From Patescibacteria group bacterium (GTDB lineage Bacteria > Patescibacteriota > Minisyncoccia > GWC2-36-17 > M10-OD1-4), in NCBI GenBank assembly GCA_038061695.1, contig JBBTYT010000001.1, positions 1,339 to 65,338 of the forward strand: DNA of 64,000 nucleotides, given 5' to 3'. The notes under the pieces are model-generated. The model was not told the origin of the DNA and did no database searches. It was given only the letters and a program-made list of their open reading frames with translations. Both the position numbers and the translations under genes were made by a program. Positions 2,456-26,100 of this stretch are shown one piece after another. The stretch's first letter is position 1. The number at the start of each line of letters is the position of its first letter.

Positions 2456-3832
2456 ATGATATTAATGAAAAAGAAAAAGTATTACAAATTTAGAAAGTTA
2501 GAGGCGTTTTTTGCCGTTCTATTTTTTGTGATCTCACTTTCTTTTATTTTTTCTCAATGGAATTATAATCGTAATTCGCCGGCTCAGGCTTCAAGTCATC
2601 CAGTTAAGATTGTTGGAGCCGCTTGGTCAGGTAGTATTGGTTGGATATCTTTTGTTCCTAATTGTGATAAAGATGGTGATGGTCTTTCTGATGGAGGAGT
2701 CGGATGTCCGCCAGCTCTGGATCCTGTTATTACTTATGGTATTTTGCTAGATACGCCAACCGATAATCTTTCAGGAAAAGCTTGGTCTGATTCAGTAGGT
2801 TGGATATCTTTTAATATTGCAGATTTAGCAGGTTGTCCAGATATATTTCCAGGTGATGTAGAGTGTCAGCCAAGGATTGTTGGTGGTAATGTTCTAGGTT
2901 GGGCAAGAGCGCTTAATACTAGCGGTGGTGGCTGGGATGGCTGGATATCTCTCTCTTGTCTTAATTCAGGTGTTTGCGGCACATCTTATTATCAGGTATT
3001 ATTTTCTTTAGCAACAGGAGAGTTTTCAGGGAGCGCATGGGGTGATGTAGTTATTGATTGGGTATCATTTAAGGGTCCAACTTATGGCGTTACAACCGCT
3101 CCAACTACTCCAACTGTTACGGCAAACTCAGTATCAATATTGGATTATTGTGTTGATAATAGAACTCCGGTATTCGTATTCACTTATGATTCTTCTAATT
3201 ATTATCCTATGACTAGTTATGAAATAGTAGTGACTAAGGTTGGGGATGTTCTTCCTTTTAGTAGCATATCAGGACTTCTATCTGTATCTCCTGGTGAATC
3301 TCGCTCTATTACATATACCGGAGCCCCACTTGATAGAAGCGGAGTTGTTGGTATTGATACAGGTTATAACTGGAGTATAAAAGTTACAAATACCGCCGGA
3401 GTGGATTCTTCTTTCACGGATATGGCAGGGAGTCCAGATGTTTTAATAGAGTTTAATAAGAGACCTGTAGTTGATTTTACTTGGGATCCGCTTCTAGTTT
3501 TTCCTGATATAGATATAGATTTTATAAGCGGTGGTTTTGCGGTATGTTATGATTACGATGCTATTGCTGGTAACGATCTTCCTAGGGATTGTACATCGGT
3601 GGATGGTGATACATTTTTATGGGATATTGTTCCTGGCGCGACTTATGTTGGCGGGTCATCAAATGCTTCTGCTGATCCAGTAGTAAATTTTCCTACTTCA
3701 GGAACAAAAATAGCCCAATTAAATATATGGGGAGTAGGCTTTAATACACTTGATGTAGGAGAGTCTTGCCAAATAATAAAAACTTTAGCTGTGAGAAAGC
3801 CAGCTCCAAAATTTCAAGAACAAAGACCATAA
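2456..3832 (+). CDS. Secreted/membrane-anchored hypothetical protein with four W-x4-GWISF-like repeats. It sits first in the pilus locus and is a candidate pilus-associated adhesin.
   Basis: N-terminal TM segment AFFAVLFFVISLSFIF. Repeats AAWSGSIGWISF, KAWSDSVGWISF, GGWDGWISL and SAWGDVVIDWVSF. Lies immediately upstream of pilM. Confidence 0.5.
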   Translation: MILMKKKKYYKFRKLEAFFAVLFFVISLSFIFSQWNYNRNSPAQASSHPVKIVGAAWSGSIGWISFVPNCDKDGDGLSDGGVGCPPALDPVITYGILLDTPTDNLSGKAWSDSVGWISFNIADLAGCPDIFPGDVECQPRIVGGNVLGWARALNTSGGGWDGWISLSCLNSGVCGTSYYQVLFSLATGEFSGSAWGDVVIDWVSFKGPTYGVTTAPTTPTVTANSVSILDYCVDNRTPVFVFTYDSSNYYPMTSYEIVVTKVGDVLPFSSISGLLSVSPGESRSITYTGAPLDRSGVVGIDTGYNWSIKVTNTAGVDSSFTDMAGSPDVLIEFNKRPVVDFTWDPLLVFPDIDIDFISGGFAVCYDYDAIAGNDLPRDCTSVDGDTFLWDIVPGATYVGGSSNASADPVVNFPTSGTKIAQLNIWGVGFNTLDVGESCQIIKTLAVRKPAPKFQEQRP

Positions 3833-3842
3833 ATTTTTTCAA

Positions 3843-4922
3843 ATGAAACTAAACTTAAATTCAAAAATAGATTTTTTAAGTATTTTTCGTGAACATACAT
3901 TTTTAGGTGTTGATATAGGCACATCATCAATAAAAATAGTTCAGCTTACCAGGAGCGGATTAAAATATAAACTTGATACTTATGGTGAAATTCATTTTTT
4001 TTCAAAAAATGAGAATAAAGAATCAGGAGATTCATTAAAAATGTTGGATAATGATGTTGCCTTTTTATTAAAAAAGATAATATTAGAGTCTGGTGCAAAG
4101 GCAAAGAGAGTGGTTATGAGTGTTCCTATATTCTCATCTTTCTCAATCATTATAGATATGCCTGATTTACCAAGAAATGAATTGACAAAAGCTATAGAAT
4201 TCCAAGCTAGACAATATGTCCCGATTCCTGTTAATCAAGTTGTTTTGAGTTATAATATTATAGGAAGAAAAGAGAATGCATCCGGTAATAATATATTACA
4301 GATTCTTTTAGTGGCGATACCGAATGAAGTAAGAGATAAATATTTTAATATAGCAAATATAGCAGGTGTCAAACTTGTATCTTTGGAGGTGGAAACGCTT
4401 CCAATGGTGCGGTCTGTTCTTAAAAATCTTAAAGAGACAGTCATGATAATTGATTTGGGTTTAAAGTCTACTAATTTTTGTATAGTAGATAACGGTGTTG
4501 TGAGATTATCTCATAATTACGATATATCAGGCAGTTCTATAACGCAAGCATTTTTAGGTTTTTCAGGTGGAGATTATAAGAAGGCGGAAAGTCTTAAAAA
4601 AACGATGGGTTTAAATATGACGCCCGGACAAAAAGAGATGGCAAGAGATGTTTTTCATACTATAAATATTATTACAGCAGAAGCAGATAGAATTATGAGC
4701 AGTTATTTTAATAAGTCTAATGTTAGAATGGAAAAGATTATTTTAAGTGGAGGCTCTGCTAATATGTTTGGCCTCAAGGAATATTTTGCAGATAGATTAA
4801 ATTTAGAGGTCGTTGTTGTTGATCCATTTTCAGGTATTATCTATCCAAAAGAATTAGAGAATATTTTGAAAGATATAGGTCCATCTTTTGCTATTGCCTT
4901 AGGACTTGCGATGCGGAAATAG
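3843..4922 (+). CDS. pilM: Type IV pilus assembly protein PilM (actin-like ATPase)
   Basis: LGVDIGTSSIKIVQL phosphate-1 motif; about 360 aa; followed by pilN/pilO-like genes. Confidence 0.75.
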   Translation: MKLNLNSKIDFLSIFREHTFLGVDIGTSSIKIVQLTRSGLKYKLDTYGEIHFFSKNENKESGDSLKMLDNDVAFLLKKIILESGAKAKRVVMSVPIFSSFSIIIDMPDLPRNELTKAIEFQARQYVPIPVNQVVLSYNIIGRKENASGNNILQILLVAIPNEVRDKYFNIANIAGVKLVSLEVETLPMVRSVLKNLKETVMIIDLGLKSTNFCIVDNGVVRLSHNYDISGSSITQAFLGFSGGDYKKAESLKKTMGLNMTPGQKEMARDVFHTINIITAEADRIMSSYFNKSNVRMEKIILSGGSANMFGLKEYFADRLNLEVVVVDPFSGIIYPKELENILKDIGPSFAIALGLAMRK

Positions 4923-5026
4923 GTTTTAGGTGCTAGGAATTTTTTATTTTGAATATATATTGTTAATGTAGTATAATTAAAAAGTTAAAACATAAAAGCT
5001 AACAGCTATAACTTAAAACCTAAAAA

Positions 5027-5551
5027 ATGCCAGATATTTCATTATTACAAAGTGATTACGAAGTGGTTTTGAAGGAAAGTAGAATCCCTAGTATTTTTCT
5101 TACTGTTTCCATAATACTTCTCGTAGTGAGTATAGGTTCATATGTTGGTCTTTTTTTCTATCACGCCACATTAGCTGAGAATTTGAAGCAGGTTTCCATT
5201 GCCATAGAGAGTCTAAGTATTGAAAATGCTTCAAATGAAGCTGGCAGGCTAAGTAAGATGGGCGGTCAATTAGATGTTATTCAATATTTGAGAGAGTTGC
5301 ATACGGATGCGAACGCATCTTTAGCGGTAATTGCAAAATCAGTTCATCCTAAAGTTTATTATAAAGATGCAGATATAAATTTAGTTCAAGGTGAAGCAAA
5401 ATTAACCGGTATTGCTTTGACACCTAAGTCTTTATCAGAGCAAGTGATGATGTATGCCGGAGAGAAGAATATATTAAGCTACGATATTTCCAATATCTCT
5501 TTAGTTAATGATAATGTTAAATTTGAATTAAACTTAAAGATTAAAAAGTAA
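5027..5551 (+). CDS. pilN: PilN-like type IV pilus inner-membrane assembly protein
   Basis: Single N-terminal TM (IFLTVSIILLVVSIGSYVGLFF) followed by a periplasmic region; position after pilM. Confidence 0.5.
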   Translation: MPDISLLQSDYEVVLKESRIPSIFLTVSIILLVVSIGSYVGLFFYHATLAENLKQVSIAIESLSIENASNEAGRLSKMGGQLDVIQYLRELHTDANASLAVIAKSVHPKVYYKDADINLVQGEAKLTGIALTPKSLSEQVMMYAGEKNILSYDISNISLVNDNVKFELNLKIKK

Positions 5552-5557
5552 GTTTTT

Positions 5558-6133
5558 ATGAATAAGGAATACATAACAGGGACAATCTTTCTTATCATCG
5601 CTGTGATTATCTATATTATTTTTATTGAACCAAAATATGCCGAAGTCAAAGTTACAGCAGAGTCTCTTATTGTAAAAAATAATGAGTTTGATGGTTATAG
5701 CGCTTTTATAAAAGATATTGGAAATATAGTTAAAGAATCAGAAGGAGATTTAAAAAGTATTCAAAAAATAGATTCTATCTTACCAGCATCTAAAAATACA
5801 TCTGATGTCCTTGTGAGACTTGATTATATTGCTTCTAGAAATGGACTACTAATGAAGGATGTGAAATTCTCAAATCCGGTGGCAAAATCTCAAAAAACAG
5901 GTAAATACTCAATTATAGATGTTAAGTTGTTTCTTTTAGGATCTTATAATTCATTTTTAAATTTTAGCAAAGATATAAAAAGTAGTAATCCTCTTATGGA
6001 TATAATAGATATCAAATTTTCCAATAATAAAAAAGATGAGGATAGAAACAAAGAGACGAAAGATGAAGTCGGATTATCTTTAGATCCAATTTTTGAATTT
6101 GAGATGAATATAAGTCTTTATTATCAATCTTAA
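5558..6133 (+). CDS. pilO: PilO-like type IV pilus assembly protein
   Basis: N-terminal TM (TIFLIIAVIIYIIFI), coiled-coil-like region, position between pilN and pilB. Confidence 0.45.
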   Translation: MNKEYITGTIFLIIAVIIYIIFIEPKYAEVKVTAESLIVKNNEFDGYSAFIKDIGNIVKESEGDLKSIQKIDSILPASKNTSDVLVRLDYIASRNGLLMKDVKFSNPVAKSQKTGKYSIIDVKLFLLGSYNSFLNFSKDIKSSNPLMDIIDIKFSNNKKDEDRNKETKDEVGLSLDPIFEFEMNISLYYQS

Positions 6134-6135
6134 TT

Positions 6136-6483
6136 ATGAATATTTCAATTAGAAACTTTTTACCGAAAAATGAAAAAACGAAGCAAGATTTAATGACGAT
6201 TATTTTAATAATCTCAACTTTAATAGTTTTTGTTATGATTTATAACTCTTATTTTAAAAAGGCACCCATTATCTCTGTTGTTGATGATGTAAAAAAGACA
6301 TCAGTTGGCGTTATTTCTTCTGCTGAAGCATCAAGGATTATTGTTGATAAAGTGAAAAAAGATATAAAAAGAATACAAGATGAATTAAAAAATCCTTTTT
6401 ACTCCTCTTTAAAAAAATATGAACCTGCAAGCAGTGAGATGGTGAGTCCAGGAAGAGGTAATCCATTCGTTAATACTTTTTAA
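6136..6483 (+). CDS. Small single-pass membrane protein, hypothetical (PilP-position protein)
   Basis: TM LMTIILIISTLIVFVMIY; 2-nt gap from pilO; no recognisable motif. Confidence 0.4.
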   Translation: MNISIRNFLPKNEKTKQDLMTIILIISTLIVFVMIYNSYFKKAPIISVVDDVKKTSVGVISSAEASRIIVDKVKKDIKRIQDELKNPFYSSLKKYEPASSEMVSPGRGNPFVNTF

Positions 6484-6504
6484 ATGATGAATTGATATTT
6501 TTTT

Positions 6505-8214
6505 ATGCAAAAAACACTCATAGATATATTAATAGCTTTAGGCAAAGTATCAGAAAACGATGCTAAGCTTTTAAGGCAAAATTTAACCACCTCTAAAATG
6601 ACAGAGGAGGATTTTTTATTGACTAAGTTTTCGGAAGATATTATTTTTAATGCAAAAAGTAAGTTTTACGGAGTACCACTTAAAGAGATAGCCGAAGATT
6701 ATCGCATTACAAGTTGGGCTTTATCTCAAATCCCGGAAGAAACGGCAAAGACATATAAATTCATACCGCTTAAGAAAGAGGGGTCACTTTTGGAATTAGG
6801 TATGGTTCATCCGCAAGATATGATGGCATCAGATGCTGTGAAATTTATTTTAACAAGTAAAAATCTCAATGCTAATATTTTTTTAATAACGAATACTCAA
6901 TTTGACTCTCTATTTAAACAATACTCTGCTATTGGAGTTAAAGTGCAAGAGGCTATTTCAGAAATTCAAGAAGATGTGGTTCCTGAGATAAAAATCAATT
7001 CGGACGATGGTAGTAAAATTCTTGCGGAGGCCCCAATAAATAAAATAGTCAATGTGATTTTTAAACATGCTTATGAAGGAGGAGCATCCGATATACATAT
7101 TGAGCCGATTGATGATAATACGCGTATAAGATTTAGAGTTGATGGTGTGTTGCACGCATCTTTATACTTGCCAAAGGAGACTCACAGCGCCATAGTTTCT
7201 AAGATTAAGATATTATCAAATCTTAAGATAGATGAATCAAGAATACCTCAGGATGGAAGATTTAGACAGATAATGTATGATCATCCAGTGGATTTTCGTG
7301 TTTCAACATTTCCAACCACTTCAGGAGAAAAGGTTGTTATTCGTATTTTAGATTCATATTCTGGATTAAAGAAAATAGAAGATCTTGGTTTTGTTGGTTA
7401 TTCTTACGATAAGATAATGGAAGCTCTAAAAAGACCATTTGGTATGGTTCTTACAACCGGACCCACCGGTTCAGGAAAATCTACAACACTACAATCAATG
7501 CTCGGTATTTTAAATAAAGAAGAGGTTAATGTGGTAAGCTTAGAGGATCCTGTAGAATATTACATATCAGGAGTTAATCAATCTCAAGTAAGACCTGAGA
7601 TCCAATATACCTTTGCTTCAGGCTTAAGGAGTATATTGCGTCAAGATCCGAATGTTATTATGGTTGGTGAGATAAGAGATAAAGAGACAGCTAACCTAGC
7701 TACTCATGCCGCACTTACAGGGCATATAGTTTTGTCAACAATTCATACGAATGATGCCCTTGGTGTAATACCCAGGCTTATTGATATGGGCGTGGAGTCA
7801 TTTTTGTTGCCACCGGCATTGAATTTAGTTATAGCGCAAAGATTAGTAAAAAAATTATGTGTCTCTTGTAAAACTACATATAAGCCTGAAGGTAGAGCAA
7901 GGGAAATATTAAATGAGGTTATATTGGGGATGCCTAAGTTTTTACAAGATGAATTAAATAAAAATGAAGTAAATATATGTCAAGCTAAAGGGTGTCCAAA
8001 GTGCTCCGGTAAAGGGACGAAGGGGAGAATAGTTATTTTTGAAGTTATAGAGATGACAAAGGAGTTAAGGGATATAATAATAAATGGACAATTTAACGCA
8101 AAGATTGAAGAGGAAACTAAAAGACAGAATATGATAACGATGAAACAAGATGGTATTATTAAGGTGTTAAAAGGTATTATTTCGCTAGAAGATGTTGTAC
8201 AAGCAACAGTTTAG
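6505..8214 (+). CDS. pilB: Type IV pilus assembly ATPase PilB (GspE family)
   Basis: N-terminal GspE_N-like region, Walker A GPTGSGKSTTL, Asp box, His box and a CxxC...CxxC tetracysteine (CVSCK...CPKCSGKG). Confidence 0.85.
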   Translation: MQKTLIDILIALGKVSENDAKLLRQNLTTSKMTEEDFLLTKFSEDIIFNAKSKFYGVPLKEIAEDYRITSWALSQIPEETAKTYKFIPLKKEGSLLELGMVHPQDMMASDAVKFILTSKNLNANIFLITNTQFDSLFKQYSAIGVKVQEAISEIQEDVVPEIKINSDDGSKILAEAPINKIVNVIFKHAYEGGASDIHIEPIDDNTRIRFRVDGVLHASLYLPKETHSAIVSKIKILSNLKIDESRIPQDGRFRQIMYDHPVDFRVSTFPTTSGEKVVIRILDSYSGLKKIEDLGFVGYSYDKIMEALKRPFGMVLTTGPTGSGKSTTLQSMLGILNKEEVNVVSLEDPVEYYISGVNQSQVRPEIQYTFASGLRSILRQDPNVIMVGEIRDKETANLATHAALTGHIVLSTIHTNDALGVIPRLIDMGVESFLLPPALNLVIAQRLVKKLCVSCKTTYKPEGRAREILNEVILGMPKFLQDELNKNEVNICQAKGCPKCSGKGTKGRIVIFEVIEMTKELRDIIINGQFNAKIEEETKRQNMITMKQDGIIKVLKGIISLEDVVQATV

Positions 8215-8249
8215 TAGTTTTTAGTATTATAAATATAAAGTTTTAAAAT

Positions 8250-8624
8250 ATGGATAGAAAAAAAATTTTAATAATAGAGGATGATGCTCTTTTGTCCAAT
8301 ATGTATCAGACAAAATTTAATTCTGAAGGATTTTGTATGATAGTGGTTGCTGATGGCGAGTCTGGTATCAAGCTTTTATCAGAAGGTCTTAATCCAAGTA
8401 TGGTGTTGCTTGATATTGTTATGCCAAAAATGGATGGTATAGAGGTTCTTGAAAAAATAAAGCAAATGGAGATATGTAAAGATGTGCCGGTTATAATGTT
8501 AACAAATTTAGGACAGAAGGAGAATATTGATAAAGCTACGAAGTCTGGTGCCGTAGGTTATATTGTAAAGGCGAATTATACGCCATCCGAAGTTGTGAAA
8601 AAAGTTAGAGAAATTATAGGCTAG
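8250..8624 (+). CDS. Single-domain response regulator receiver (CheY-like) embedded between pilB and pilT
   Basis: KILIIEDD acidic pocket, phosphoacceptor in MVLLDIVMPKMDG, TNLGQ, K in GYIVKA; 124 aa with no output domain. Confidence 0.75.
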   Translation: MDRKKILIIEDDALLSNMYQTKFNSEGFCMIVVADGESGIKLLSEGLNPSMVLLDIVMPKMDGIEVLEKIKQMEICKDVPVIMLTNLGQKENIDKATKSGAVGYIVKANYTPSEVVKKVREIIG

Positions 8625-8650
8625 ATTAATTAAATGATTTTTTAAATATT

Positions 8651-9718
8651 ATGAATGATTTAAAAAGAGAATTTGAGGCGTTGCTTTACGAGGTTGTTGC
8701 AAGAAAGGCATCTGATTTACATTTATCAATAGGAAGGAAACCTCAATTTAGAATAGACGGCTCTCTGGTTACTTTTGAAGAGGCGGATATCATAAGTGAA
8801 AAGAAGGGTAATGATTTAATGTCTATTCTTATGAGTGAGAATCAGAAAGAAAGATTTTTGGAAAATAGAGAAATAGATTTTTCATATACAGTTGATGGTA
8901 TAGGAAGATTTCGCGTTAATGTTTTTTTTCAGAGAGGTAATTTTTCAGTAGCCTTAAGACTTATTCCAAGCTCTATACAGACATTGGACGAACTTGGACA
9001 TCCTGATGTTTTGCATGATCTTTTAAAAACTTCACAAGGATTTTTTATTGTTGTCGGTCCTTCAGGTCAAGGTAAATCTACTACGCTCGCATCAATGATA
9101 GATGAAATAAATCATCAAAGGAAAAATCATATAGTTACAATAGAGGATCCGATAGAGTATTTATTTGAAGATATTAAATCAATTATTGATCAGAGGGAGG
9201 TTGGTAATGATACAAAAGGTTTTAATGTGGCATTGCGTTCTGTTTTGCGTCAGGATCCAGATGTTATTATGGTTGGTGAAATGAGGGATTCAGAAACAAT
9301 ATCAGCGGCTATTACCGCTTCGGAAACAGGACATCTTGTTTTTTCAACATTGCATACGAATAATGCTTCACAAACAATAGATAGAATAATAGACTCTTTC
9401 CCACCGGCGCAACAGAGTCAGATAAAGGCTCAACTTGCAGGAACGCTTTTAGGGGTTCTTTCAAAGAGGTTAATTCCAAGGATAGACGGAGGTAGAGTAG
9501 CGGCATTTGAGCTTCTAATAGCAAATTCAGCTGTTAGAAATCTAATTAGAGAAGGAAAGACACATCAAATTGATCTTGTTATTGAAACATCAGCAGATAT
9601 AGGTATGGTATCTTTAAATAAATCGCTTTCTTATCTTGTAAAAAGCGGAATTATTACTATGGAGAACGCCGAGATGCACTCTCTTAACCCAGTGGAATTA
9701 AGGATGCTTATTAAATAG
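8651..9718 (+). CDS. pilT: Twitching motility/retraction ATPase PilT
   Basis: Walker A GPSGQGKSTTL; 355 aa; lacks a GspE_N domain; AIRNLIREGK motif typical of PilT. Confidence 0.8.
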   Translation: MNDLKREFEALLYEVVARKASDLHLSIGRKPQFRIDGSLVTFEEADIISEKKGNDLMSILMSENQKERFLENREIDFSYTVDGIGRFRVNVFFQRGNFSVALRLIPSSIQTLDELGHPDVLHDLLKTSQGFFIVVGPSGQGKSTTLASMIDEINHQRKNHIVTIEDPIEYLFEDIKSIIDQREVGNDTKGFNVALRSVLRQDPDVIMVGEMRDSETISAAITASETGHLVFSTLHTNNASQTIDRIIDSFPPAQQSQIKAQLAGTLLGVLSKRLIPRIDGGRVAAFELLIANSAVRNLIREGKTHQIDLVIETSADIGMVSLNKSLSYLVKSGIITMENAEMHSLNPVELRMLIK

Positions 9719-9773
9719 AGGTTTTTAAGTATTAATCTAAAACCTAAAAACTATAACCTAAGACCTAGAAAAA

Positions 9774-10979
9774 ATGTTATTTAAATACGAAGCAAAAACA
9801 TATCAAGGTGAAACAAAGAATGGGACGATTGAAGCATCATCACAGAGTATTGCTGTTGACATACTACAAAAAAGCGATTTAATACTTCTTGATATTGTTG
9901 AGGCGTCAGATATTTCATTAGCTACAAAAAAGCTTAAGTTTTTTGAACATATTCCAAAGAAAGAAGTTTTTATGTTTTCTCGCCAGCTTTCTGTTTTATT
10001 TGAAGCTAAGGTTCCTGTTGTGGAATCTTTACGCACAATGATTGATCAAACAAGAAGCGTAGCATTTAAAGAGATTTTGGAAAAAGTAACAAAGAGCGTT
10101 AATGATGGAAATCCTTTATCAAAATCTTTTGCAGAACATAAAAAAGTTTTTTCTGATTTTTATATAAGCATTGTGAAGTCTGGTGAGCTTTCAGGAAATC
10201 TTGAAACCGTTTTCTCTTATTTAGCCGAGTCTCTTGAAAGAGATTATTATTTAACACAAAAAGTCAGAGGCGCAATGATTTATCCCGCATTTATTATATT
10301 TGCAATGATTGCCGTTACATTTGTGATGATGATTTGGGTTATTCCTAATCTTACTTCTGTTTTTACAGAATCAAATATGGAGTTGCCTTTTTTAACTCAA
10401 ATTATAGTTAATATATCAGATGTATTTCAAGAGTTTTGGTGGTTAATACTTTTTGTTTTGGTTGGTGGAGCGACTGGTTTTTGGCAGTGGGTATCAACTG
10501 AAAATGGTAAAATGATCTGGGGCTCAATCCAGCTTGAAATACCAGTTTTTGGCGAGATTTTAACAAAATTTTATCTTGCAAGATTCTCAGATTCTTTAAG
10601 CACATTAATAGTCGGTGGATTGCCAATTGTAAAATCACTAGAGACTTCTGCTGATGTCGTAGGTAATTATACATATAAAAAAATCTTAAGAGAGACTATT
10701 GATGTTGTAAAAAAAGGAGGAACTATAAGTTCAGTTTTTAGAAGATATAAAGAAGTTCCAATTATGGTTACTCAAATGATTTCAATAGGTGAGCAAGCAG
10801 GTAAGCTGGATGGCACATTGAAGACAATTTCTAAATTTTATAGCAAGGAAGTTGAGAGTGCTATGGATAATATGGTGACATTAATAGAGCCATTACTTAT
10901 TTTGGTGTTAGGAACAGGAGTAGGAATATTGATAGTCGCAATTTTAATGCCGATGTATAATCTTACCGCCGCTATATAG
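9774..10979 (+). CDS. pilC: Type IV pilus platform protein PilC (GspF family)
   Basis: 401 aa with duplicated GspF-like halves, three TM segments, C-terminal ILMPMYNL. Confidence 0.8.
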   Translation: MLFKYEAKTYQGETKNGTIEASSQSIAVDILQKSDLILLDIVEASDISLATKKLKFFEHIPKKEVFMFSRQLSVLFEAKVPVVESLRTMIDQTRSVAFKEILEKVTKSVNDGNPLSKSFAEHKKVFSDFYISIVKSGELSGNLETVFSYLAESLERDYYLTQKVRGAMIYPAFIIFAMIAVTFVMMIWVIPNLTSVFTESNMELPFLTQIIVNISDVFQEFWWLILFVLVGGATGFWQWVSTENGKMIWGSIQLEIPVFGEILTKFYLARFSDSLSTLIVGGLPIVKSLETSADVVGNYTYKKILRETIDVVKKGGTISSVFRRYKEVPIMVTQMISIGEQAGKLDGTLKTISKFYSKEVESAMDNMVTLIEPLLILVLGTGVGILIVAILMPMYNLTAAI

Positions 10980-11020: not shown

Positions 11021-11389
11021 ATGGTTAAAATTAACTCTTATAAAGATTTAATCGTATGGCAAAGGTCTATGCAATTAGTTGAAAATATTTATAAAATAAC
11101 TGAGAAATTTCCCAAAGAAGAAATTTATGGTCTGACTGCGCAAATGAGAAGATCTGCCGTATCAATTCCTTCAAACATAGCAGAAGGAAGTTGTAGGGGA
11201 ACAAGAAAGGATTACGCGCAATTTTTAAGAATGGCATATGGATCTGGCGCTGAGCTTGAAACACAAATAGAGATAGCAAAAAGATTACTAGGAAAACAAA
11301 AAATTGATTATTCTGACGTTGATAAATTTTTAGATGAAGTAATGAAGATGCTTAATTCTTTAATAAAAAGACTAACCACCAACATCTAA
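11021..11389 (+). CDS. Four-helix-bundle protein (TIGR02436 / 23S rRNA intervening-sequence protein family)
   Basis: YKDLIVWQRSMQLVENIYKIT...EEIYGLTAQMRRSAVSIPSNIAEGSCRG...AYGSGAELETQIEIA is a near-textbook match to the family consensus. The gene is flanked by inverted repeats 10981-11012 and 11388-11424. Confidence 0.85.
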   Translation: MVKINSYKDLIVWQRSMQLVENIYKITEKFPKEEIYGLTAQMRRSAVSIPSNIAEGSCRGTRKDYAQFLRMAYGSGAELETQIEIAKRLLGKQKIDYSDVDKFLDEVMKMLNSLIKRLTTNI

Positions 11390-11542: not shown

Positions 11543-12052
11543 ATGAGCCACTTAAGCTTAGGGCTTATGAGAATATTAAAGAAAATTATGAAAAGAAATC
11601 AAAAAGGTTTTACGCTTATCGAACTTTTAGTCGTTATCGCTATTATCGGTATATTGTCTTCTATCGTTTTAGTCTCTTTGAATACTGCCAGAGTAAAAGC
11701 TAGAGATGCTAAGAGAACAGCGGATATGCAAGCAATTTCTACAGCTCAGGTTTTATTTGCTGATTCTCAGACAGCATTTAGATATGTAGCAGTTTCAGCT
11801 GCCGCTTGTACTGGCTGGGATGGTGTTAATTGTCCTCTTGTTACAGACGGAGTTCCAGCATTTTCTACTCTTATGCCAGTATTACCTGTTAATCCTTCAG
11901 CAACAGGACTTTATCATTATAAGAATGTTGGTTCTGATTCTACATATTGTGTAGCGGCTGATTTAGAGTCACCTGCTGGAGATGCATTTGTTTGTACTTC
12001 TGTGCGTTGCGCTAAGTTAACTGTTGTATCTACTGCTTGTGTAGAACAGTAA
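11543..12052 (+). CDS. Type IV major pilin (class III signal peptide; prepilin)
   Basis: Leader ...KRNQKG then FTLIELLVVIAIIGILSSIV (G-1, F+1, E+5). Followed by a strong rho-independent terminator. Confidence 0.85.
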   Translation: MSHLSLGLMRILKKIMKRNQKGFTLIELLVVIAIIGILSSIVLVSLNTARVKARDAKRTADMQAISTAQVLFADSQTAFRYVAVSAAACTGWDGVNCPLVTDGVPAFSTLMPVLPVNPSATGLYHYKNVGSDSTYCVAADLESPAGDAFVCTSVRCAKLTVVSTACVEQ

Positions 12053-12080
12053 TTTAGATTCTATTTAATTTAAAATAAAA

Positions 12081-12118
12081 ATTAGCGCACAATATTGTGT
12101 GCTAATTTTTATTTTTTT
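12081..12118 (+). terminator. Rho-independent terminator after the major pilin gene
   Basis: Perfect hairpin TTAGCGCACAA-TAT-TGTGTGCTAA followed by a T-run. Confidence 0.7.
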
Positions 12119-12168: not shown

Positions 12169-12846
12169 ATGAAATATAATATTTTAAAGATGACATTTTT
12201 AATAACTTCTTTTGCTATGCTTTCATTTGTCGGCGCTATCTTAATTAAAAATTCCTACGCTCAGTGGGTTGGCCCCACTGGCGCGCCTCCATCAAATAAT
12301 ACATTGCCCTCTTTAAATACAGGAATTACAGATCAGATAAAAACAGGCGGTTTAACAGTTGGAAGATTAAACACATCAGGGAATATAACTGCAGGCGGAA
12401 TTATTTGTGATTCTTCGGGGTGTATAAATTCTTCTGCTTTAGAAGCAGATCCAACAGTTCTCGCATCTGTTAAAGATGGAGTATCTTGGGCTGAGCTTGC
12501 AACTGTTCCAGCAGGTTTCTTAGATGGTATTGATAATGTTGGAGCAGTTGTCGCAGAAACAGATCCAACAGTTCTCGCATCTGTTAAAGATGGAGTATCT
12601 TGGGCTGAGCTTGCAACTGTTCCAGCAGGTTTCTTAGATGGTATTGATAATGTTGGAGCAGTTACTCTCAATAGTGTTGGAACTAATGAAGTTATTGATG
12701 GCTCTCTAATGATGTCAGATATGAATGCCACGGTTATTCAGGCTAGAATTTCGGGTACTTGTTTATCAGGTATTTCCGTTGTGAATTCAAATGGAACCGT
12801 TGGTTGTGTAGTGGCTGGTTCATCGGAAGCTGTTTACGCTCCATAA
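12169..12846 (+). CDS. Secreted hypothetical protein containing a perfect 38-aa tandem duplication
   Basis: Signal peptide MTFLITSFAMLSFVGAILI. DPTVLASVKDGVSWAELATVPAGFLDGIDNVGAV occurs twice (nt 12448-12549 and 12562-12663, identical). Minus-strand ORF 12333-12731 is its antisense shadow. Confidence 0.6.
   Translation: MKYNILKMTFLITSFAMLSFVGAILIKNSYAQWVGPTGAPPSNNTLPSLNTGITDQIKTGGLTVGRLNTSGNITAGGIICDSSGCINSSALEADPTVLASVKDGVSWAELATVPAGFLDGIDNVGAVVAETDPTVLASVKDGVSWAELATVPAGFLDGIDNVGAVTLNSVGTNEVIDGSLMMSDMNATVIQARISGTCLSGISVVNSNGTVGCVVAGSSEAVYAP
12448..12663 (+). repeat. Two identical 102-bp copies in direct tandem with a 114-bp period (12-bp spacer)
   Basis: The 102-bp unit GATCCAACAGTTCTCGCATCTG...GTTGGAGCAGTT is repeated with 100 percent identity. 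Confidence 0.85.
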
Positions 12847-12863: not shown

Positions 12864-13553
12864 ATGAAAAAAACAATAATAATAACAATAATATTTATAC
12901 TTATTACTATAGTTGTTTTTTCTATTTTGTACTTTTCTTTTTCTTTAAAAAAAGGTGAAGATCTAAGTAATGTTACTACATTAAATGAGAGAGAAATTCA
13001 AAAAAATACTCTTGAGATTATAAAAACAAAAGACTTTTCTCTATGCGAAAATATAAGTGATATTACATATAAATCTGTTTGTATAAATAATATTGCGATG
13101 ATGTTAGCAAAAGAGAGCGGCGATATCTCTTATTGTCAAAAAATGGATGGTAAATTAATAACAACTCAAGAGTGTGAAATACAAACTCTCTCTGTAAAAC
13201 TTTCTGAGAGCGGTGATGCAACCTTATGCGATAAATTCACTAATCAAGTATCTAAAGATGATTGTAAAAATGGTTTTTATTTAAGTGTTTCACAAGAGAA
13301 AGGCGATATTTCTTTATGCAAAAATATAAAAAATAAAACAGATTCAGATTTATGTATTAATTCTTACAATACAAGGAAAGTTTTCTTAAATGATCCGGCT
13401 AACTTTGATTGTTCTTTGATGATTGGTGATGATGCAATATCCGATTGCAAGAAAGTAAAAGATATTATAAGTGATTTTGGTAATAATGTCATTTTGTCGC
13501 CGGATAAATGTTTGCAACTCAAAACATCTTTATTTTCAACTTATTGTATATGA
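12864..13553 (+). CDS. Secreted Cys-rich repeat protein, hypothetical
   Basis: N-terminal TM IIITIIFILITIVVFSILYF; four to five repeats of C-x(10-14)-SGD(I/A)S(Y/L)C. Confidence 0.5.
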   Translation: MKKTIIITIIFILITIVVFSILYFSFSLKKGEDLSNVTTLNEREIQKNTLEIIKTKDFSLCENISDITYKSVCINNIAMMLAKESGDISYCQKMDGKLITTQECEIQTLSVKLSESGDATLCDKFTNQVSKDDCKNGFYLSVSQEKGDISLCKNIKNKTDSDLCINSYNTRKVFLNDPANFDCSLMIGDDAISDCKKVKDIISDFGNNVILSPDKCLQLKTSLFSTYCI

Positions 13554-15070
13554 GATATATTTTTTTATTAATTTTTGCTTTTATATTATCTTCTTTCGGA
13601 ATCAAAGATGTTTTTGCGGCGGAAGGTGATCTTTTGTGGTCAAAAAGCATAGATCAGACATCTAGCCAAGATTCGGCAACAGCTATTGCCGTTGATGCAT
13701 CCGGTATTTATGTTGCCGGGCGTATCCAGAATGTTACTGGCTATGATGCTAAGATAGATAAGTTGTCGCTAGACGGGACAACTGTCATAGCAAGCAGAAT
13801 ACTGAATATAGCAAATCCTTATAGAGCGGAGATCACAGATATAGCTTTAGATGCCACTGGTATATATATATCAGGATATAAGTATGCTTGTTGTCTAGCA
13901 TGGGACCTTGAATGGTTTGTAAAGAAAATATCTTTAGATTTAACAACAGAGATCTGGTCTGATAATCAAAATTATACTGTTGGCGGTAGTACTGAAGATA
14001 CGGCAAATAGCATTGCTGTTGACGCTACTGGTCTTTATGTTGGCGGTTCTATTTTACATGGAGGCGCTGGAAGCAAGTGGCGGTTAGAAAAAAGAAGCTT
14101 AACTACCGGTATTGTCTCGGATTTTGCGATAATAGATGTTGGACCAACCGGTATGTATAATAATCTTAAAAGTATTGATATTGATGCAACAAGTATTTAT
14201 TTAGCTGGTTCTTTTTCTGATTCTTCAAGTAATAAGAATTGGAGGATAGAGAAAAGGGCGATTTCTAACTTAAATACTATTATCTGGGCAAGGAATGTTG
14301 GAACGGGTGCAAATAATATACCTTATAGCATTGCTGTTGATGCTACTGGTGTTTATGTTGGCGGTACTTTTACAACTTGGAATATAAAAAAGCTTTCTAT
14401 TGTTGATGGTACTGTTATTTGGAGTAGAAGTGATTCCACTGTAGTGAACGGCTATCCTGCTAGTATTGATCTTGGAGCACCAGGTAATATCTACTCTATT
14501 GGATATGATATAAAAGTAGGTTCTGATTCTTGGTGGCATTTTGATAAGAGAGATACAAATGGAAATCTTTTGTGGTCGCAAGAAGAAAATCCATCTCTTA
14601 ACTTTGATATTCCATTTGGGGTAGTTATTGATTCTGCAAGCAATGGCATTTATGTAGTTGGCTATGACGCTATTTTAGGAAATGCTAATATTGAGTGGCG
14701 AATAGAGAAGAGAACGCTTTCTCTTATTTGTACTGGTCAAAAAGTATTTGTCTGGACGGATCCTGCTTTAACTGCTGGTCTTACAAAAATAAGAAAGGTT
14801 CATATAGATGAGCTTCGTTCAAATATTAATATTATGCGTTTGGATGCCGGTTTAATAACTTTCTTGTGGACAGATCCTATTATTGCATCAGGAGCTACGA
14901 AGATTAGAGCAACACATATTCAAGAGTTGAGGACAGCTATATTAGATGTTTATACAGCTTGTGGTTCTATAGCGCCGGTCTTTTCTGACGCAACCTTAGT
15001 AGCTGGAACAACAAAAATAAGAAAAGTTCATATAGACGAACTTAGAAGTGCTGTAAATCTTGTTCCGTAA
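13550..15070 (+). CDS. Secreted beta-propeller (SBBP-type repeat) protein with three C-terminal roughly 30-aa repeats
   Basis: Signal peptide. Six or more repeats of (S/A)IAVDATG(I/L/V)YV(A/G)G, the SBBP beta-propeller signature. C-terminal triple repeat WTDPxLxAGxTKIRxxHIxELR. Start chosen at the ATG overlapping the upstream stop (ATGA). Confidence 0.55.
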   Translation: MRYIFLLIFAFILSSFGIKDVFAAEGDLLWSKSIDQTSSQDSATAIAVDASGIYVAGRIQNVTGYDAKIDKLSLDGTTVIASRILNIANPYRAEITDIALDATGIYISGYKYACCLAWDLEWFVKKISLDLTTEIWSDNQNYTVGGSTEDTANSIAVDATGLYVGGSILHGGAGSKWRLEKRSLTTGIVSDFAIIDVGPTGMYNNLKSIDIDATSIYLAGSFSDSSSNKNWRIEKRAISNLNTIIWARNVGTGANNIPYSIAVDATGVYVGGTFTTWNIKKLSIVDGTVIWSRSDSTVVNGYPASIDLGAPGNIYSIGYDIKVGSDSWWHFDKRDTNGNLLWSQEENPSLNFDIPFGVVIDSASNGIYVVGYDAILGNANIEWRIEKRTLSLICTGQKVFVWTDPALTAGLTKIRKVHIDELRSNINIMRLDAGLITFLWTDPIIASGATKIRATHIQELRTAILDVYTACGSIAPVFSDATLVAGTTKIRKVHIDELRSAVNLVP

Positions 15071-15073: not shown

Positions 15074-15847
15074 ATGATATTATTTTTTATATTTTTATTC
15101 GGTCTTATAATCGGTTCTTTTTTGAACGCCGTCATATATCGCCTTGAGGTTGGCGGTTCTTTGGTTACAGAGAGATCTCGCTGTCCGCTTTGTGGAGGTA
15201 CATTAAGCTGGTATGAGCTTATACCTCTTCTATCTTTTTTATTTCAAAAAGGACGCTGTCTTTCTTGCGGTGAGAAGATATCTTGGCAATATCCCATAGT
15301 AGAGCTTTTAACAGGATTTTTATTTCTTTTGACAGCTTTTTTAAAAGAGGGTTCTCTTTTAGATATGACACCAGTAGATATTATATATATTTTTATCGTC
15401 ATGACCTTTTTGGTCTTGATATTTATTTTTGACGGAAAACATTATATAATACCTAATGTAGCTATTTATCCGCTCATTGCTATGTCATTCTTTTACAATA
15501 TATATTCTTTAGGTATTACAGGGCTTTATTACTTTTTAGGAGCATTTATAGCATCGGGGTTTTTTCTTCTGCTTTATCTTATCTCTTCAGGCAAGTGGAT
15601 AGGTATGGGGGATGTAAAGTATGGTGCATTTATGGGTTTTTTCTTACCATGGACGAATGTTCTAGTTGCTCTTTTTATCGCTTATGTTATCGGTGCTATT
15701 TTTGGACTAGCTCTATTGTATTTAAGAAAGAAAGGCTTAAAAAGTGAGATTCCATTCGGTCCATTTTTAATTATAGGGACATTGATAGCATATTTTTTTG
15801 GAACTGATATATTAAGCTGGTATCTAGGCGGAGTTTTTTCTTTTTAG
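15074..15847 (+). CDS. pilD: Prepilin peptidase PilD (A24 family)
   Basis: CPLCGGTLSWYELIPLLSF...GRCLSCGEKISWQYP zinc tetracysteine; polytopic membrane protein; GMGDVKYG catalytic-Asp region. Confidence 0.8.
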   Translation: MILFFIFLFGLIIGSFLNAVIYRLEVGGSLVTERSRCPLCGGTLSWYELIPLLSFLFQKGRCLSCGEKISWQYPIVELLTGFLFLLTAFLKEGSLLDMTPVDIIYIFIVMTFLVLIFIFDGKHYIIPNVAIYPLIAMSFFYNIYSLGITGLYYFLGAFIASGFFLLLYLISSGKWIGMGDVKYGAFMGFFLPWTNVLVALFIAYVIGAIFGLALLYLRKKGLKSEIPFGPFLIIGTLIAYFFGTDILSWYLGGVFSF

Positions 15848-15943
15848 TTGTTAGCTTTTAGAATTAAAATAAAAGAAAAGATAAAAGTGTAAAATGCAAA
15901 GCGAAAAGTTCAAAATAACGACGCAAAATAGAAATAATAAAAT

Positions 15944-16540
15944 ATGCAAAATCTAAAATCTAAAACCTATAACCTAAAACCTAGCGAGGGCTTTACATTG
16001 ATAGAAATTATAATTGCCTCAGCGGTAATAGCTATAGTTTCTATTATAACTGTAGTTAAGGTAGGTACTGGAAATCAGGAACAGGCACTTTTAAGATCTG
16101 CTCAAAAGCTCGCGTTAGATCTAAGGAGGGCTCAAAATTTAGCACTTTCTCCATTAACTACTGATAATTGTGTTTATGGTGTTACAGGAAAAACGACCAG
16201 TTCTGATAGCTATATTCTTTATGTGGCAACTAGCACATGCGACTCTTTTAGTGATAGGAGCTTCCCAAACACCGGCTCTTATAGCGTCTGTAATGTTGAT
16301 GATGGTTGTCTTGGTAGGTATGAATTTGAGGACGGTGTTGTATTACAGACGGGTAATAATTTTGATATTTCATTTCTTCCTCCAGAACCAATATCTCTTT
16401 CTAATGGCAGAACTGCTGGTCCGCCTGGTTCTGCTTTCAATCCTGGAGGAATAGAAACAATCACCATTAGGTTAGCTAATAATATTGCAAGAGAAAAAAA
16501 AGTAGTAGTAAATAAATTTGGAAATATTGAAATACAATAA
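15944..16540 (+). CDS. Minor pilin / pseudopilin (type IV prepilin-like)
   Basis: Leader MQNLKSKTYNLKPSEG then FTLIEIIIASAVIAIVS. The internal ORF 16170-16454 is an artifact. Confidence 0.7.
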   Translation: MQNLKSKTYNLKPSEGFTLIEIIIASAVIAIVSIITVVKVGTGNQEQALLRSAQKLALDLRRAQNLALSPLTTDNCVYGVTGKTTSSDSYILYVATSTCDSFSDRSFPNTGSYSVCNVDDGCLGRYEFEDGVVLQTGNNFDISFLPPEPISLSNGRTAGPPGSAFNPGGIETITIRLANNIAREKKVVVNKFGNIEIQ

Positions 16541-16578
16541 ACGAGGTTTTAGGTTATAGCTTTTAGCTTATAGAATTT

Positions 16579-17145
16579 ATGAAAAAAATTATATTAAAAT
16601 TTAATAAAACTCTAAAACCTAAAACCTATAACCTAAAATCTAATAGGGGTTTTACTATAGTTGAATCCTTGGTTGCTATAACTATTTTGACTGTTGGCGT
16701 GTCAGCCTCAATAGGAGCTATAATGAGCTCTATTCAACTAGTCTCTAAGACAGAAAATAGAACAATAGCTGTTGGTTTGGCGCAAGAGGGTGTTGAGATT
16801 GTAAGAAATATGAGAGATTTAAATTGGATAGATGGCAATACGCCATGGGATTTGGGGTTAACTGATGATATATTAATCAGTGGTGGTTTCAAAACAGGAT
16901 GCGTTGAGTTTGATAGCGTCTCGTTTGATGTTAATTGTGTTGTCGGCACTTCTTATACTATGAAGCTTATTGATAATGCTGGTAATTTATATTACGGACA
17001 TGATCAATTGAGTCCGGCTACTATATTTTCAAGAACGATTACCTTAACAAGGATCAGCGCTGATGAGATTGTAGTGCGATCTTTGGTTGCTTGTGGAGTG
17101 AATTGCAATATTTCTGTAGAGGAACATTTATTTAATTGGCAGTAG
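16579..17145 (+). CDS. Minor pilin / pseudopilin
   Basis: Leader ...LKPKTYNLKSNRG then FTIVESLVAITILTVGVSA. Confidence 0.7.
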   Translation: MKKIILKFNKTLKPKTYNLKSNRGFTIVESLVAITILTVGVSASIGAIMSSIQLVSKTENRTIAVGLAQEGVEIVRNMRDLNWIDGNTPWDLGLTDDILISGGFKTGCVEFDSVSFDVNCVVGTSYTMKLIDNAGNLYYGHDQLSPATIFSRTITLTRISADEIVVRSLVACGVNCNISVEEHLFNWQ

Positions 17146-17170
17146 ATATTCTTTTAACTCGTAGAATAAT

Positions 17171-17713
17171 ATGATAAAAAATAGAAAATTTATAAAAGAA
17201 AAAAATGGATATACATTAATTGAATTAATGCTTGCTATATCTATTTTTTCTATCGCCGTATCAATATGCGTTAATATGTTTATTAACGCTATAAAGCTTC
17301 AAAGAAGCGCTATAGCAGTTCAAAATGTTTCCGATAATGGAAGATATATTATGGAAATAATAGCGAGGGAGATAAGAACAGGAAAAGTTAATAGTTTTAT
17401 TCTTAATGGCACTGATGATCTTTCCTTTCAGAGTAATTCTCCAAATAGAGCTGGAAATACATTAAAATTTTACTTATCCTTATCCGGAGATCAATTAATG
17501 TTTGATGATAATACCGCTGATGCCTTAGAAGCTTTATCTGTAACAGCAACTAATAATGTCGTAGTAACTTTTTTAAGATTTGAAATTCAAAATTCCACAA
17601 AACAACCAAGAATAACAATTTTTTTAAATGTTCAATCTAAAAATCCGCCAGTTGACTCTCAAGATGAAATTTATTTACAGACAACTATTTCGCCAAGAGA
17701 GCTAAGACAATAA
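17171..17713 (+). CDS. Minor pilin / pseudopilin
   Basis: Leader MIKNRKFIKEKNG then YTLIELMLAISIFSIAVS. Confidence 0.7.
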   Translation: MIKNRKFIKEKNGYTLIELMLAISIFSIAVSICVNMFINAIKLQRSAIAVQNVSDNGRYIMEIIAREIRTGKVNSFILNGTDDLSFQSNSPNRAGNTLKFYLSLSGDQLMFDDNTADALEALSVTATNNVVVTFLRFEIQNSTKQPRITIFLNVQSKNPPVDSQDEIYLQTTISPRELRQ

Positions 17714-17718
17714 TAAAT

Positions 17719-18141
17719 ATGAAAAAAATATTTAAAAAAAATGAAAATGGTATAGCTATTTATCTTTCAATCTTAATATTGGCTTCCGTCGTTTCTGTGG
17801 CTTTATCAGTCTCAAGTTTATTGATAGGTGAATTTAAAATATCAGGGGATTTACAGGAATCTTCGGCATCCATTTATGTGGCAGATTCTGGACTTGAGGC
17901 GGCGCTTTATAGTGTTAGACTTGAAACGCTTCTGGCAGGAATATATCCTTGTTCAGATCCTCAATTATTAGGAGCCGCAACAACTATGAATTGTTCTGTT
18001 ACGGTTGATACAGCTTATATAGATATTAATAATTCGCTCTGCAATAATGTACCTTATGATTGTACAAGTATTGTATCTACAGGGCAGAATAATGACGGTA
18101 CATATTTTAGGAAGCTTCAGGCAATATATCAAAATAGATGA
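17719..18141 (+). CDS. PilX-like minor pilin
   Basis: N-terminal hydrophobic IAIYLSILILASVVSVALSV then SIYVADSGLEAALYSV, which resembles the PilX_N AAEAGLE motif. Stop overlaps the ligA start (ATGA). Confidence 0.5.
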   Translation: MKKIFKKNENGIAIYLSILILASVVSVALSVSSLLIGEFKISGDLQESSASIYVADSGLEAALYSVRLETLLAGIYPCSDPQLLGAATTMNCSVTVDTAYIDINNSLCNNVPYDCTSIVSTGQNNDGTYFRKLQAIYQNR

Positions 18142-22716: not shown

Positions 22717-22789
22717 AGCGGGGTAGAGGAGCTGGTACCTCGTCGGTCTCATAAGCCGAAGGTCGTGGGTTCGAATCCCGCCCCCGCAA
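22717..22789 (+). tRNA. tRNA with CAT anticodon, possibly initiator-like because the acceptor stem appears to have an unpaired 1:72 position
   Basis: Cloverleaf by eye: D-stem GAGG/CCTC, anticodon loop CTCATAA, T-loop TTCGAAT, acceptor xGCGGGG/CCCCGCx with discriminator A. Confidence 0.6.
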
Positions 22790-22821
22790 CAAAGTTTGGT
22801 ATGGTTTTTTCCAGTGATTAC

Positions 22822-22895
22822 GCCAGGGTAGCTCAGTTGGTTAGAGCACAGGACTCATAAGCCTGGGGTCGTGGGTTCGAATCCCACCTCTGGTA
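22822..22895 (+). tRNA. tRNA with CAT anticodon (elongator Met or lysidine-modified Ile2)
   Basis: GCCAGGG-T-A-GCTCAGTTGGTTAGAGC...CTCATAA...GTGGGTTCGAATCCCAC-CTCTGGT-A. Identity cannot be settled from sequence alone. Confidence 0.65.
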
Positions 22896-22917
22896 CCGAA
22901 ACTTTATAATTTTTTTT

Positions 22918-22995
22918 GGGGCCGTGGTCTAGCCCGGTTATGACGTCTCCCTGTCACGGAGAAGATCGCCGGTTCAAATCCGGTCGGCCCCGCCA
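22918..22995 (+). tRNA. tRNA-Asp (GTC) with genomically encoded CCA
   Basis: Acceptor GGGGCCG/CGGCCCC, anticodon loop CTGTCAC, T-loop TTCAAAT, discriminator G plus CCA. Minus-strand ORF 22904-23200 overlapping it is spurious. Confidence 0.8.
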
Positions 22996-23119
22996 GATTT
23001 CTAAGTTTGAACCCCGATAAAATAAGGGGTTTTGATGATTTAGAAACCGTTATCCGAACGAGGCGCCGGTTTTTCTTAATCCTTATCAAAGGAGTAAAAT
23101 TTTGATATAATAAAATTAT

Positions 23120-25462: not shown

Positions 25463-25525
25463 ATATAACTCCTTGTAGATCAAAATAAAAACTCCCTGAA
25501 AAGCTGACGGGAAAAGCTCGATCAA

Positions 25526-26053: not shown

Positions 26054-26100
26054 GTTCAAAGTTCCGGAGATCGGCCCAGCCATATTTTTAAGTTTGAACC
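26054..26100 (+). repeat. Degenerate direct repeat of the tRNA-Asp 3' end plus downstream flank (putative attR of an integrated element)
   Basis: GGTTCAAAGTTCCGGAGATCGGCCCAGCCATATTTTTAAGTTTGAACC versus tRNA-Asp 22971-23013 GGTTCAAATCCGGTCGGCCCCGCCAGATTTCTAAGTTTGAACC. About 40 of 43 positions align with two small indels, including 12 identical terminal bases TAAGTTTGAACC. Confidence 0.6.

Follow-up and report, generated by a model that had tools for sequence, protein, structure and literature searches.

In-frame tandem repeats and variable distal domains recur in the genes of several surface proteins. The alpha C and Rib proteins of group B Streptococcus and the Vlp and Vsa proteins of Mycoplasma are built from many-unit arrays, for which a within-strain variation tied to immune escape has been documented. 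Among the accessory and tip adhesins of type IV pili, the PilV protein of R64 is varied by a shufflon, i.e., by a site-specific recombinase, and adhesins of the PilC/PilY1 type form a further group. Concerted evolution of tandem repeats in genes of structural and surface proteins has been described for spidroins (PMC3933166) and for the FLO adhesins of yeast (PMC3512402), next to work on variable coding tandem repeats in general (PMC3899988). Here, we describe a repeat of this kind in a 64,000-nucleotide stretch of the genome of a Patescibacteria group bacterium (assembly GCA_038061695.1, contig JBBTYT010000001.1, positions 1,339 to 65,338), which is called the window throughout. A gene for a secreted protein of 225 aa at 12169–12846 of the window, which lies within a type IV pilus locus, contains two tandem modules whose DNA is identical over 104 nt. 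This identity is probably explained by a recent gene conversion between two old copies, and thus by concerted evolution of the modules.

With the spidroin and FLO repeats the locus shares that repeats within one gene are closer to each other than orthologous repeats are between species, synonymous sites included, that exact identity occurs in discrete tracts, and that the number of repeats varies among relatives. Unlike these, the window protein holds two units only and belongs to an uncultured bacterium with a reduced genome, and its unit, the DPTV module, is short and strongly conserved (∼60% identity between phyla) and neither of low complexity nor fast-evolving. As in alpha C/Rib and Vlp/Vsa, the units are tandem, in frame and DNA-identical within a protein that has a signal peptide, so that recombination can alter their number without breaking the frame; in contrast to these arrays there are two units, no heterogeneity has been observed, and the organism is of an environmental, episymbiont type without adaptive immune pressure. 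R64 PilV and the PilC/PilY1 adhesins resemble the window gene in that it lies in a pilus locus beside a pilin gene, in that its distal part varies among relatives, and in that a role in the attachment to a partner is plausible. They differ in that the window protein has no prepilin leader and no homology to PilY1, PilC or the constant region of PilV, and its variation would arise by homologous recombination, not by a site-specific recombinase as in R64 PilV. A further likeness concerns tail-fibre-like proteins, as homologs combine the DPTV module, in 1 to ∼9–17 copies (arrays of 9–17 matched stretches have been found in some proteins by HMMER scan), with collagen repeats, Phage Tail Collar (PF07484), the Peptidase_S74 chaperone domain (PF13884) or C1q heads, and as the aligned orthologs of the window protein show a constant, conserved head, a variable modular stalk and interchangeable C-terminal domains. 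The window protein, unlike the tail-fibre-like proteins, has neither those Pfam domains nor a PHROG match, and its gene is chromosomal and part of a pilus operon.

Structure of the repeat

The features of the gene, an open reading frame (ORF) on the plus strand, are the following.

12169 to 12846 (+): gene of a secreted, modular (fibre-like) protein of 225 aa; positional ortholog of P0336, P0209, P0213, P0337 and P0013 (ORF list, tblastn, synteny)
12169 to 12261 (+): Sec-type signal peptide, residues 1–31, predicted cleavage ...NSYA↓QW, not a prepilin leader (AlphaFold2 (AF2) helix, ortholog alignment)
12262 to 12366 (+): conserved N-terminal 'head' motif QWxGPTxxPPxxNxxxPLNxGxxxQxKxGGLTxG of the mature protein (alignment A3)
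12436 to 12445 (+): linker 5' of copy 1 (codons A-L-E and first base of A); 5/10 nt shared with 12550–12559, not identical
12446 to 12549 (+): exact 104-nt repeat, copy 1; codes for residues 94–127, which form module 1, DPTVLASVKDGVSWAELATVPAGFLDGIDNVGAV
12550 to 12559 (+): inter-module linker, V-A-E-T region, unique sequence; resembles the ortholog linkers AAET and ITET
12560 to 12663 (+): exact 104-nt repeat, copy 2; codes for residues 132–165, which form module 2, DPTVLASVKDGVSWAELATVPAGFLDGIDNVGAV
12664 to 12807 (+): conserved 'SVGxxEVIDGSL...IQxRxSGTC...DGTVxC' unit 3' of the modules (alignment A3, BLASTP, tblastn)

Tandem Repeats Finder has placed the array at 12441–12663, with a period of 114, 2.0 copies and 99% matches. 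By direct comparison, 12446–12549 and 12560–12663 have been found identical over 104 nt, in frame and at the same period, which leaves 10 nt between the copies; a version of 109 nt, with a spacing of 5 nt, contains one mismatch (12445 g versus 12559 a). The preliminary description of this DNA had given copies of 102 nt and a spacer of 12 nt; these figures refer to the same repeat, with only whole codons taken into account (DPTV...GAV, modules of 34 aa each with a period of 38 aa). The 104-nt cores show zero differences, synonymous sites included, and are the sole exact direct repeat of at least 30 nt in the 64-kb window, so that the repeat is far above chance expectation. The perfect identity of the two copies is new, the mark of a very recent event, and here the zero divergence bears out what the preliminary description had proposed. 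The window repeat is, however, no clean U-U duplication, and the linkers around its copies are non-periodic: of the 10 nt 5' of copy 1 (gctttagaag), 5 agree with the inter-copy linker (gtcgcagaaa), and of the 10 nt 3' of copy 2 (actctcaata), 2 agree with this linker. An antisense ORF of 132 aa (12333–12731, minus strand) covers the repeat and so has a duplicated segment of its own; it has no support as a gene.

The repeat has also been traced in other read sets. The window PilC (9774–10979) has a 100% identical database entry, which is labelled as a 'Patescibacteria group bacterium' metagenome-assembled genome (MAG). Logan contigs carrying this PilC (ERR3858126, SRR32696679) both stop at window position 12475, and those carrying the 229-aa gene downstream of the repeat gene (ERR3858122, SRR32696713) both start at 12634; except for the adapter tail of one of them (L018), the four contigs do not differ from the window. 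The two break points lie exactly 30 nt (k−1) inside the respective edges of the exact repeat. In a de Bruijn graph with k = 31, contigs break where a node has two predecessors or two successors, and 31 is the value that we take to be that of the Logan assembly; breaks exactly 30 nt inside both edges thus mean that both left and both right contexts of the repeat are present in four other read sets. The duplication is present in the reads and is not a product of the assembler. As contigs with k = 31 break at the repeat, they give no copy count, and assemblies either show two copies or break there. No record of the exact product of the window gene has been found in the look-up. Logan assemblies always break the gene at the repeat, and an exact scan of JGI metagenomes with a 44-nt core has given 0 matches and no other copy. 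The last 22 nt of L018 (Logan SRR32696713), over window positions 14008–14029, are the Illumina adapter AGATCGGAAGAGC...; 19 mismatches at this contig end have accordingly been rejected as strain divergence.

Comparison with orthologous genes

P0209 (449 aa) has been found by HMMER scan, and a search seeded with it has led to P0336, P0337, P0213, P0340 and P0341. On the 229-kb contig L019, P0336 is embedded in the order pilM...pilB-response regulator-pilT-pilC-pilin-P0336-prepilin peptidase-pilins-ligA-gatC-gatA, which is the gene order of the window, and the positional orthologs in four related genomes (L019, L023, L024, L014) are P0336, P0213, P0337 and P0013. The window PilC is 66–72% identical to that of related genomes, and in comparison with the L014 genome the identities of LigA and of the prepilin peptidase are 69% and 59%. 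By tblastn, the window gene (12169–12813) has shown 44–47% identity to residues 1–260 of P0336 and P0209, and no counterpart of the ∼190-aa C-terminal domain of these two proteins anywhere in the window; the window protein stops 11 residues after the DGTVxC unit, without this domain.

Before the 'EVIDGSL...DGTVxC' unit the orthologs carry 0, 1 or 2 DPTV modules, and one clade has more of them after it. Among the orthologs, P0336 and P0209 are the closest in sequence, and their two tandem modules stand exactly where those of the window do, joined by AAET or ITET in place of VAET. At this site, P0230 carries one module only, and in P0213 and P0337 the two modules are not adjacent. In another lineage, P0345 and P0342 are ∼97% identical outside a gap of 36 residues, which is exactly one module (3 versus 4 copies). 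Copy-number change over evolutionary time is thus real in the DPTV family, and the two-module arrangement appears to be old, as it is shared with orthologs in genomes with ∼70% PilC identity; for the lineage of the window itself, we infer it.

In all five two-module genes, the copies within a gene match each other better than they match the module of any other genome. Over the first 75 nt, the DNA identity of modules 1 and 2 within a gene amounts to 1.00 in the window, 0.96 in P0209, 0.95 in both P0213 and P0337, and 0.89 in P0336, as compared to 0.61–0.87 between genomes, and the identity at third codon positions is 1.0 in the window and 0.65–0.79 in the other orthologs versus 0.41–0.65 between genomes. 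When the two modules of each gene are compared, exact identity extends over at most 104 (the window), 80, 69, 47 and 17 nt. P0209 is a clear mosaic, whose copies show no difference over their first 80 nt, while the 3' end of module 1 (FADNVDDTGT) is shared with module 1 of P0336; two distinct copies hence predate the split of P0209 and P0336, and part of one has later been overwritten.

The non-clean junctions, the two modules already present in P0336 and P0209, and the homogenisation within genes together point to a conversion between old copies. The recombination mechanism itself is what we infer from them: one copy would have replaced the sequence of the other by gene conversion, a non-reciprocal homologous recombination within the gene, in a tract that would cover the whole module and end at the linkers, where homology ends, and the non-periodic linkers would thereby be explained. 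The same process would have been repeated independently in the orthologs, among whose conversion tracts that of the window is the latest and the most complete. The donor was probably the downstream copy (copy 2), as is weakly hinted by the 3' ends of the window modules, which are closer to the downstream-type module of P0336 and P0209 (0.70 versus 0.48–0.63). In this scheme, the modules would serve as stalk units of a secreted modular protein encoded between the major pilin and prepilin peptidase genes in a family of Patescibacteria, and two DNA-identical units 114 nt apart would provide a substrate for unequal recombination, by which modules might be gained or lost. The repeat itself is genuine, and a gene conversion of its tandem units would give its identity an ordinary evolutionary origin, within a repeat family that has been undescribed.

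Several points weigh against this explanation or parts of it. The nearest relatives have only ∼70% PilC identity, and the state just before the event in the window is not seen; a loss of one module, followed by re-duplication and later remodelling of the junctions, is a conceivable history. The differences in 3'-end identity behind the donor direction are weak, and the function of the protein and its link to the pilus have been deduced from gene position and from the domain company of homologs, the structure models being uninformative. Family-wide, module pairs of at least 90% identity account for 27–34% within proteins versus 0.47% between proteins, which speaks for this explanation; the statistic has, however, been drawn from proteins ranked by their similarity to a query with two identical modules, which may inflate the similarity within proteins. 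An initial statistic (87 matches, 34-aa windows) had shown no excess within proteins (0.574 versus 0.571) and was reversed by the larger set and by the DNA comparison of the orthologs.

Alternative explanations of the identity

A new tandem duplication in the lineage of the window, by which a single module was copied through replication slippage or unequal crossing-over too recently for substitutions to accumulate, is possible in principle and in our view unlikely. It agrees with the zero differences over 104 nt, with the single module of P0230 at the same position, by which a one-copy state exists in the family, and with the one-module indel between the near-identical P0345 and P0342. However, a clean unit of 114 nt should be periodic over 228 nt, and the flanking 10 nt mismatch at 5/10 and 8/10 positions whereas the core has no mismatch; moreover, a tandem pair of modules with a similar xAET linker is already in place at this site in the closest orthologs, P0336 and P0209, and their partial exact tracts show conversion operating. 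Of the duplication proposed in the preliminary description, the recency has therefore been retained, and the novelty is unlikely, since two modules stand at the site in P0336 and P0209 and the junctions are not clean. The preliminary description had also held that an ancient, fixed duplication would be recognised by the same two diverged copies in orthologs; two copies have indeed been found there, which are not diverged but homogenised in each lineage.

Gene conversion between old copies has further to be compared with a contingency locus, in which the identical units would drive frequent, reversible, in-frame changes of copy number in the population and so vary the length or antigenicity of the fibre. 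As its substrate, such a locus needs tandem units of a secreted protein that are in frame and DNA-identical, and two of these are present here; the number of modules at the site is 0, 1 or 2 among orthologs, a one-unit difference separates ∼97%-identical proteins elsewhere, and arrays of 9–17 matched stretches do exist. We nevertheless hold such a locus to be very unlikely, as there are two units only, as the two-copy state has been kept in P0336 and P0209 across ∼30% PilC divergence, and as in-frame units of 114 nt are unable to switch the gene on or off. The four independent read sets also show the same graph structure and otherwise identical sequence, though graphs with k = 31 give no copy count, and no heterogeneity has been observed in the assemblies, which cannot count copies. 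A phase- or antigenic-variation device, as first stated in the preliminary description, is accordingly unlikely.

That the assembler spuriously expanded a single-copy module is exceedingly improbable. Assemblers are known to go wrong at tandem repeats whose length is below or close to that of the k-mer; yet the linker at 12550–12559 is unique sequence with the core on either side, the frame is kept, the linker resembles those of the orthologs, and the contigs of the four other runs break 30 nt inside both edges, which needs two left and two right contexts. The preliminary description had allowed for an assembly artefact in either direction: an expansion is refuted by both contexts on each side in four independent runs, while a collapse of more than two copies to two could have taken place.

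A diversity-generating retroelement (DGR) with a template repeat/variable repeat (TR/VR) pair, to which the Avd-like gene at 11021–11389 had drawn attention (PF05635 at 4e-38 ∼1 kb upstream, with a weak bAvd match below the curated cut-off), is effectively refuted, as the copies show no differences at all and hence no adenine-specific ones, as both are coding and in frame within one ORF with no non-coding template, as no unassigned ORF of reverse-transcriptase size or likeness exists in 2.4–22.5 kb, and as the four-helix-bundle gene is absent from orthologous loci whose modules are still homogenised.

The DPTV module family

The repeat unit has been identified as a strongly conserved and widespread 'DPTV module' of ∼37 residues, ETDPTVxxSVKDGVSWxExxxxPAGFxDGxDxxG, in which E2, D4, P5, V7, K12, G14, W17, P24 and D29 are invariant over an alignment of 49 modules. 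A HMMER scan of 1.84 billion cluster representatives has returned at least 686 proteins with E ≤ 1e-3, of which 200 reach E ≤ 1e-10, and among the named sources are Parcubacteria, Desulfobulbus, Dehalococcoidales, Sedimentisphaerales, Nitrospirota, Alpha- and Gammaproteobacteria, Bacteroidota and Nanoarchaeota. Proteins with the DPTV module occur in MAGs of Nanoarchaeota (DPANN; L003; P0038, P0041, P0007, P0016 and similar), by which the module is spread over both domains. A set of proteins of 140–250 aa has a K/R-rich N-terminus, ...NRxxYTLIxxGILxxxGVGVYAYG..PSxxGHSxxEIE, with the module directly after it.

No model of the module has been found in Pfam-A, NCBIfam or PHROG and no sequence match in PDB, and the whole window protein has likewise given no match in Pfam, NCBIfam, PHROGs or PDB sequences. 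The profile of the module has found no confirmed match among IMG/VR viral contigs, and a search of a literature collection for its motif strings has found no paper. A scan of GTDB species genomes has revealed no ortholog of the window protein; its matches are only unrelated module-bearing proteins from Syntrophus, Sedimentisphaerales, Nanoarchaeota, Nitrospirota, Alphaproteobacteria and Marinoscillum. Towards the BNR/Asp-box (SxDxGxTW), the profile has reached E = 0.012–0.23 to GH74 enzymes, via strings of the 'GVSWSE' type. An AF2 model of a single module, with a predicted local distance difference test score (pLDDT) of 78 and a predicted template modelling score (pTM) of 0.28, has shown short helices and loop-like parts without a beta-hairpin, and Foldseek has found no match for it in PDB; the full-length monomer (mean pLDDT 63, modules ∼52–64) is uninformative and has not been used. 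With at least 686 protein clusters in many phyla, often of tail-fibre-like proteins, and without a curated family or a solved structure, the DPTV module merits a family definition and a structure.

The window protein and its possible role

According to the preliminary description, the gene with the repeat encodes a secreted protein and belongs to the pilus locus; both attributes are borne out, by a Sec-type signal and by the position of the gene between the pilin and prepilin peptidase genes. AF2 has placed a helix at residues 3–29 of the 225-aa protein (pLDDT 85–97), and A31, which precedes Q32-W33, as well as W33 are invariant across the ortholog alignment. In contrast to the neighbouring genes, there is no match to PF07963 N_methyl or TIGR02532. 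The protein has been rejected as a type IV pilin or minor pilin, as a class III leader with the G↓F/M-T-L-I-E motif is absent and the Sec-type signal ends in SYA↓QW. Some distant module-bearing homologs, among them members of the group of P0345 and P0342, match only the last 45 positions of the PilV profile Shufflon_N (PF04917); these matches contain no pilin domain and have not been used for an identity as pilin. An assignment as a phage tail fibre has also been rejected, as there is no PHROG match and no confirmed module in IMG/VR, and as S74, collar and collagen domains occur only in some homologs.

In the head motif, W33, G35, P40, P41, N44, Q56, K58, G60 and G65 are invariant in alignment A3, and the motif is common to many proteins of Parcubacteria, including P0001, P0011, P0012, P0025 and P0036. 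The final EAVYAP of the window protein (12829–12846) also ends the otherwise different, module-bearing P0072 from a JGI metagenome, either by coincidence or as a C-terminal motif that both proteins have.

The position of the gene and the domain company of its homologs suggest that the window protein may be a surface fibre or adhesin that contributes to attachment alongside the pilus. In one family of Patescibacteria, a secreted modular protein with a DPTV stalk and interchangeable distal domains is a constant part of the type IV pilus locus, and as such a candidate host-attachment factor in a group with a little-known attachment biology, for which studies of patescibacterial type IV pili provide the context (PMC11623550, PMC10633639). 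A more far-reaching picture, which we consider speculative and rather improbable, would make the DPTV stalk a recombination-tunable spacer in a host-attachment fibre of episymbiotic Patescibacteria, in which homogenisation keeps the copy number, as the measure of fibre length or reach, and the exchangeable distal domain evolvable, populations are a mixture of 1, 2 and at least 3 copies, and the module is a new structural repeat that crosses the domains of bacteria and DPANN archaea.

The type IV pilus locus and neighbouring genes

The window contains a complete type IV pilus locus, as seen from ORFs and from Pfam and TIGR matches, with the following parts.

3843 to 10979 (+): type IV pilus assembly genes pilM, pilN-like, pilO-like, pilB, response regulator, pilT and pilC (ORFs; Pfam labels from the identical Logan contig L015)
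6505 to 8214: pilB
8651 to 9718: pilT
9774 to 10979: pilC
11543 to 12052 (+): major type IV pilin gene, directly 5' of the repeat gene (PF07963 N_methyl 1.6e-11, TIGR02532)
12072 to 12115 (no strand assigned): terminator-like element between the pilin gene and the repeat gene, a palindrome with 22-nt arms followed by a T-run
15074 to 18141 (+): prepilin peptidase gene (15074–15847) and, at the end of the locus, four pilin-like or minor-pilin-like genes (orthologs labelled in L014 and L019)

Just upstream of pilM, 2456–3832 encodes a secreted protein of 458 aa with motifs of the 'GWISF' type (WSGSIGWISF, WSDSVGWISF, GWDGWISL, DWVSF) that belongs to no Pfam family. The interval from pilC to the pilin gene holds the 122-aa four-helix-bundle gene (11021–11389), which matches the '23S rRNA-intervening sequence protein' family PF05635 (4e-38) and has a weak bAvd-like match; it is present in the identical Logan contigs and absent at this place from the related loci L019, L023 and L024. 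Two extra genes at 12864–15070, found only in this genome, separate the repeat gene from the prepilin peptidase gene, which the ortholog adjoins in the relatives. One of them encodes a membrane-anchored, Cys-rich protein of 229 aa with three diverged repeats of ∼53 nt (13036–13361), and the other a protein of 520 aa with a weak SBBP beta-propeller match and three C-terminal 'TKIRxxHIxELR' repeats.

Farther downstream, an insertion of ∼5.9 kb (∼23000–28990) directly follows a tRNA-Met/tRNA-Met/tRNA-Asp cluster (22717–22995). It encodes a 780-aa fusion of N6_Mtase with a type I specificity-domain protein and a protein of 473 aa with a weak TIR-like (CAP12/Pycsar) match, and its guanine-cytosine content reaches up to 0.415 versus 0.33 for the window. 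In L014, the same three tRNAs are directly followed by a gene of 121 aa and by pheS, and the insertion looks like a defence island at tRNA-Asp.

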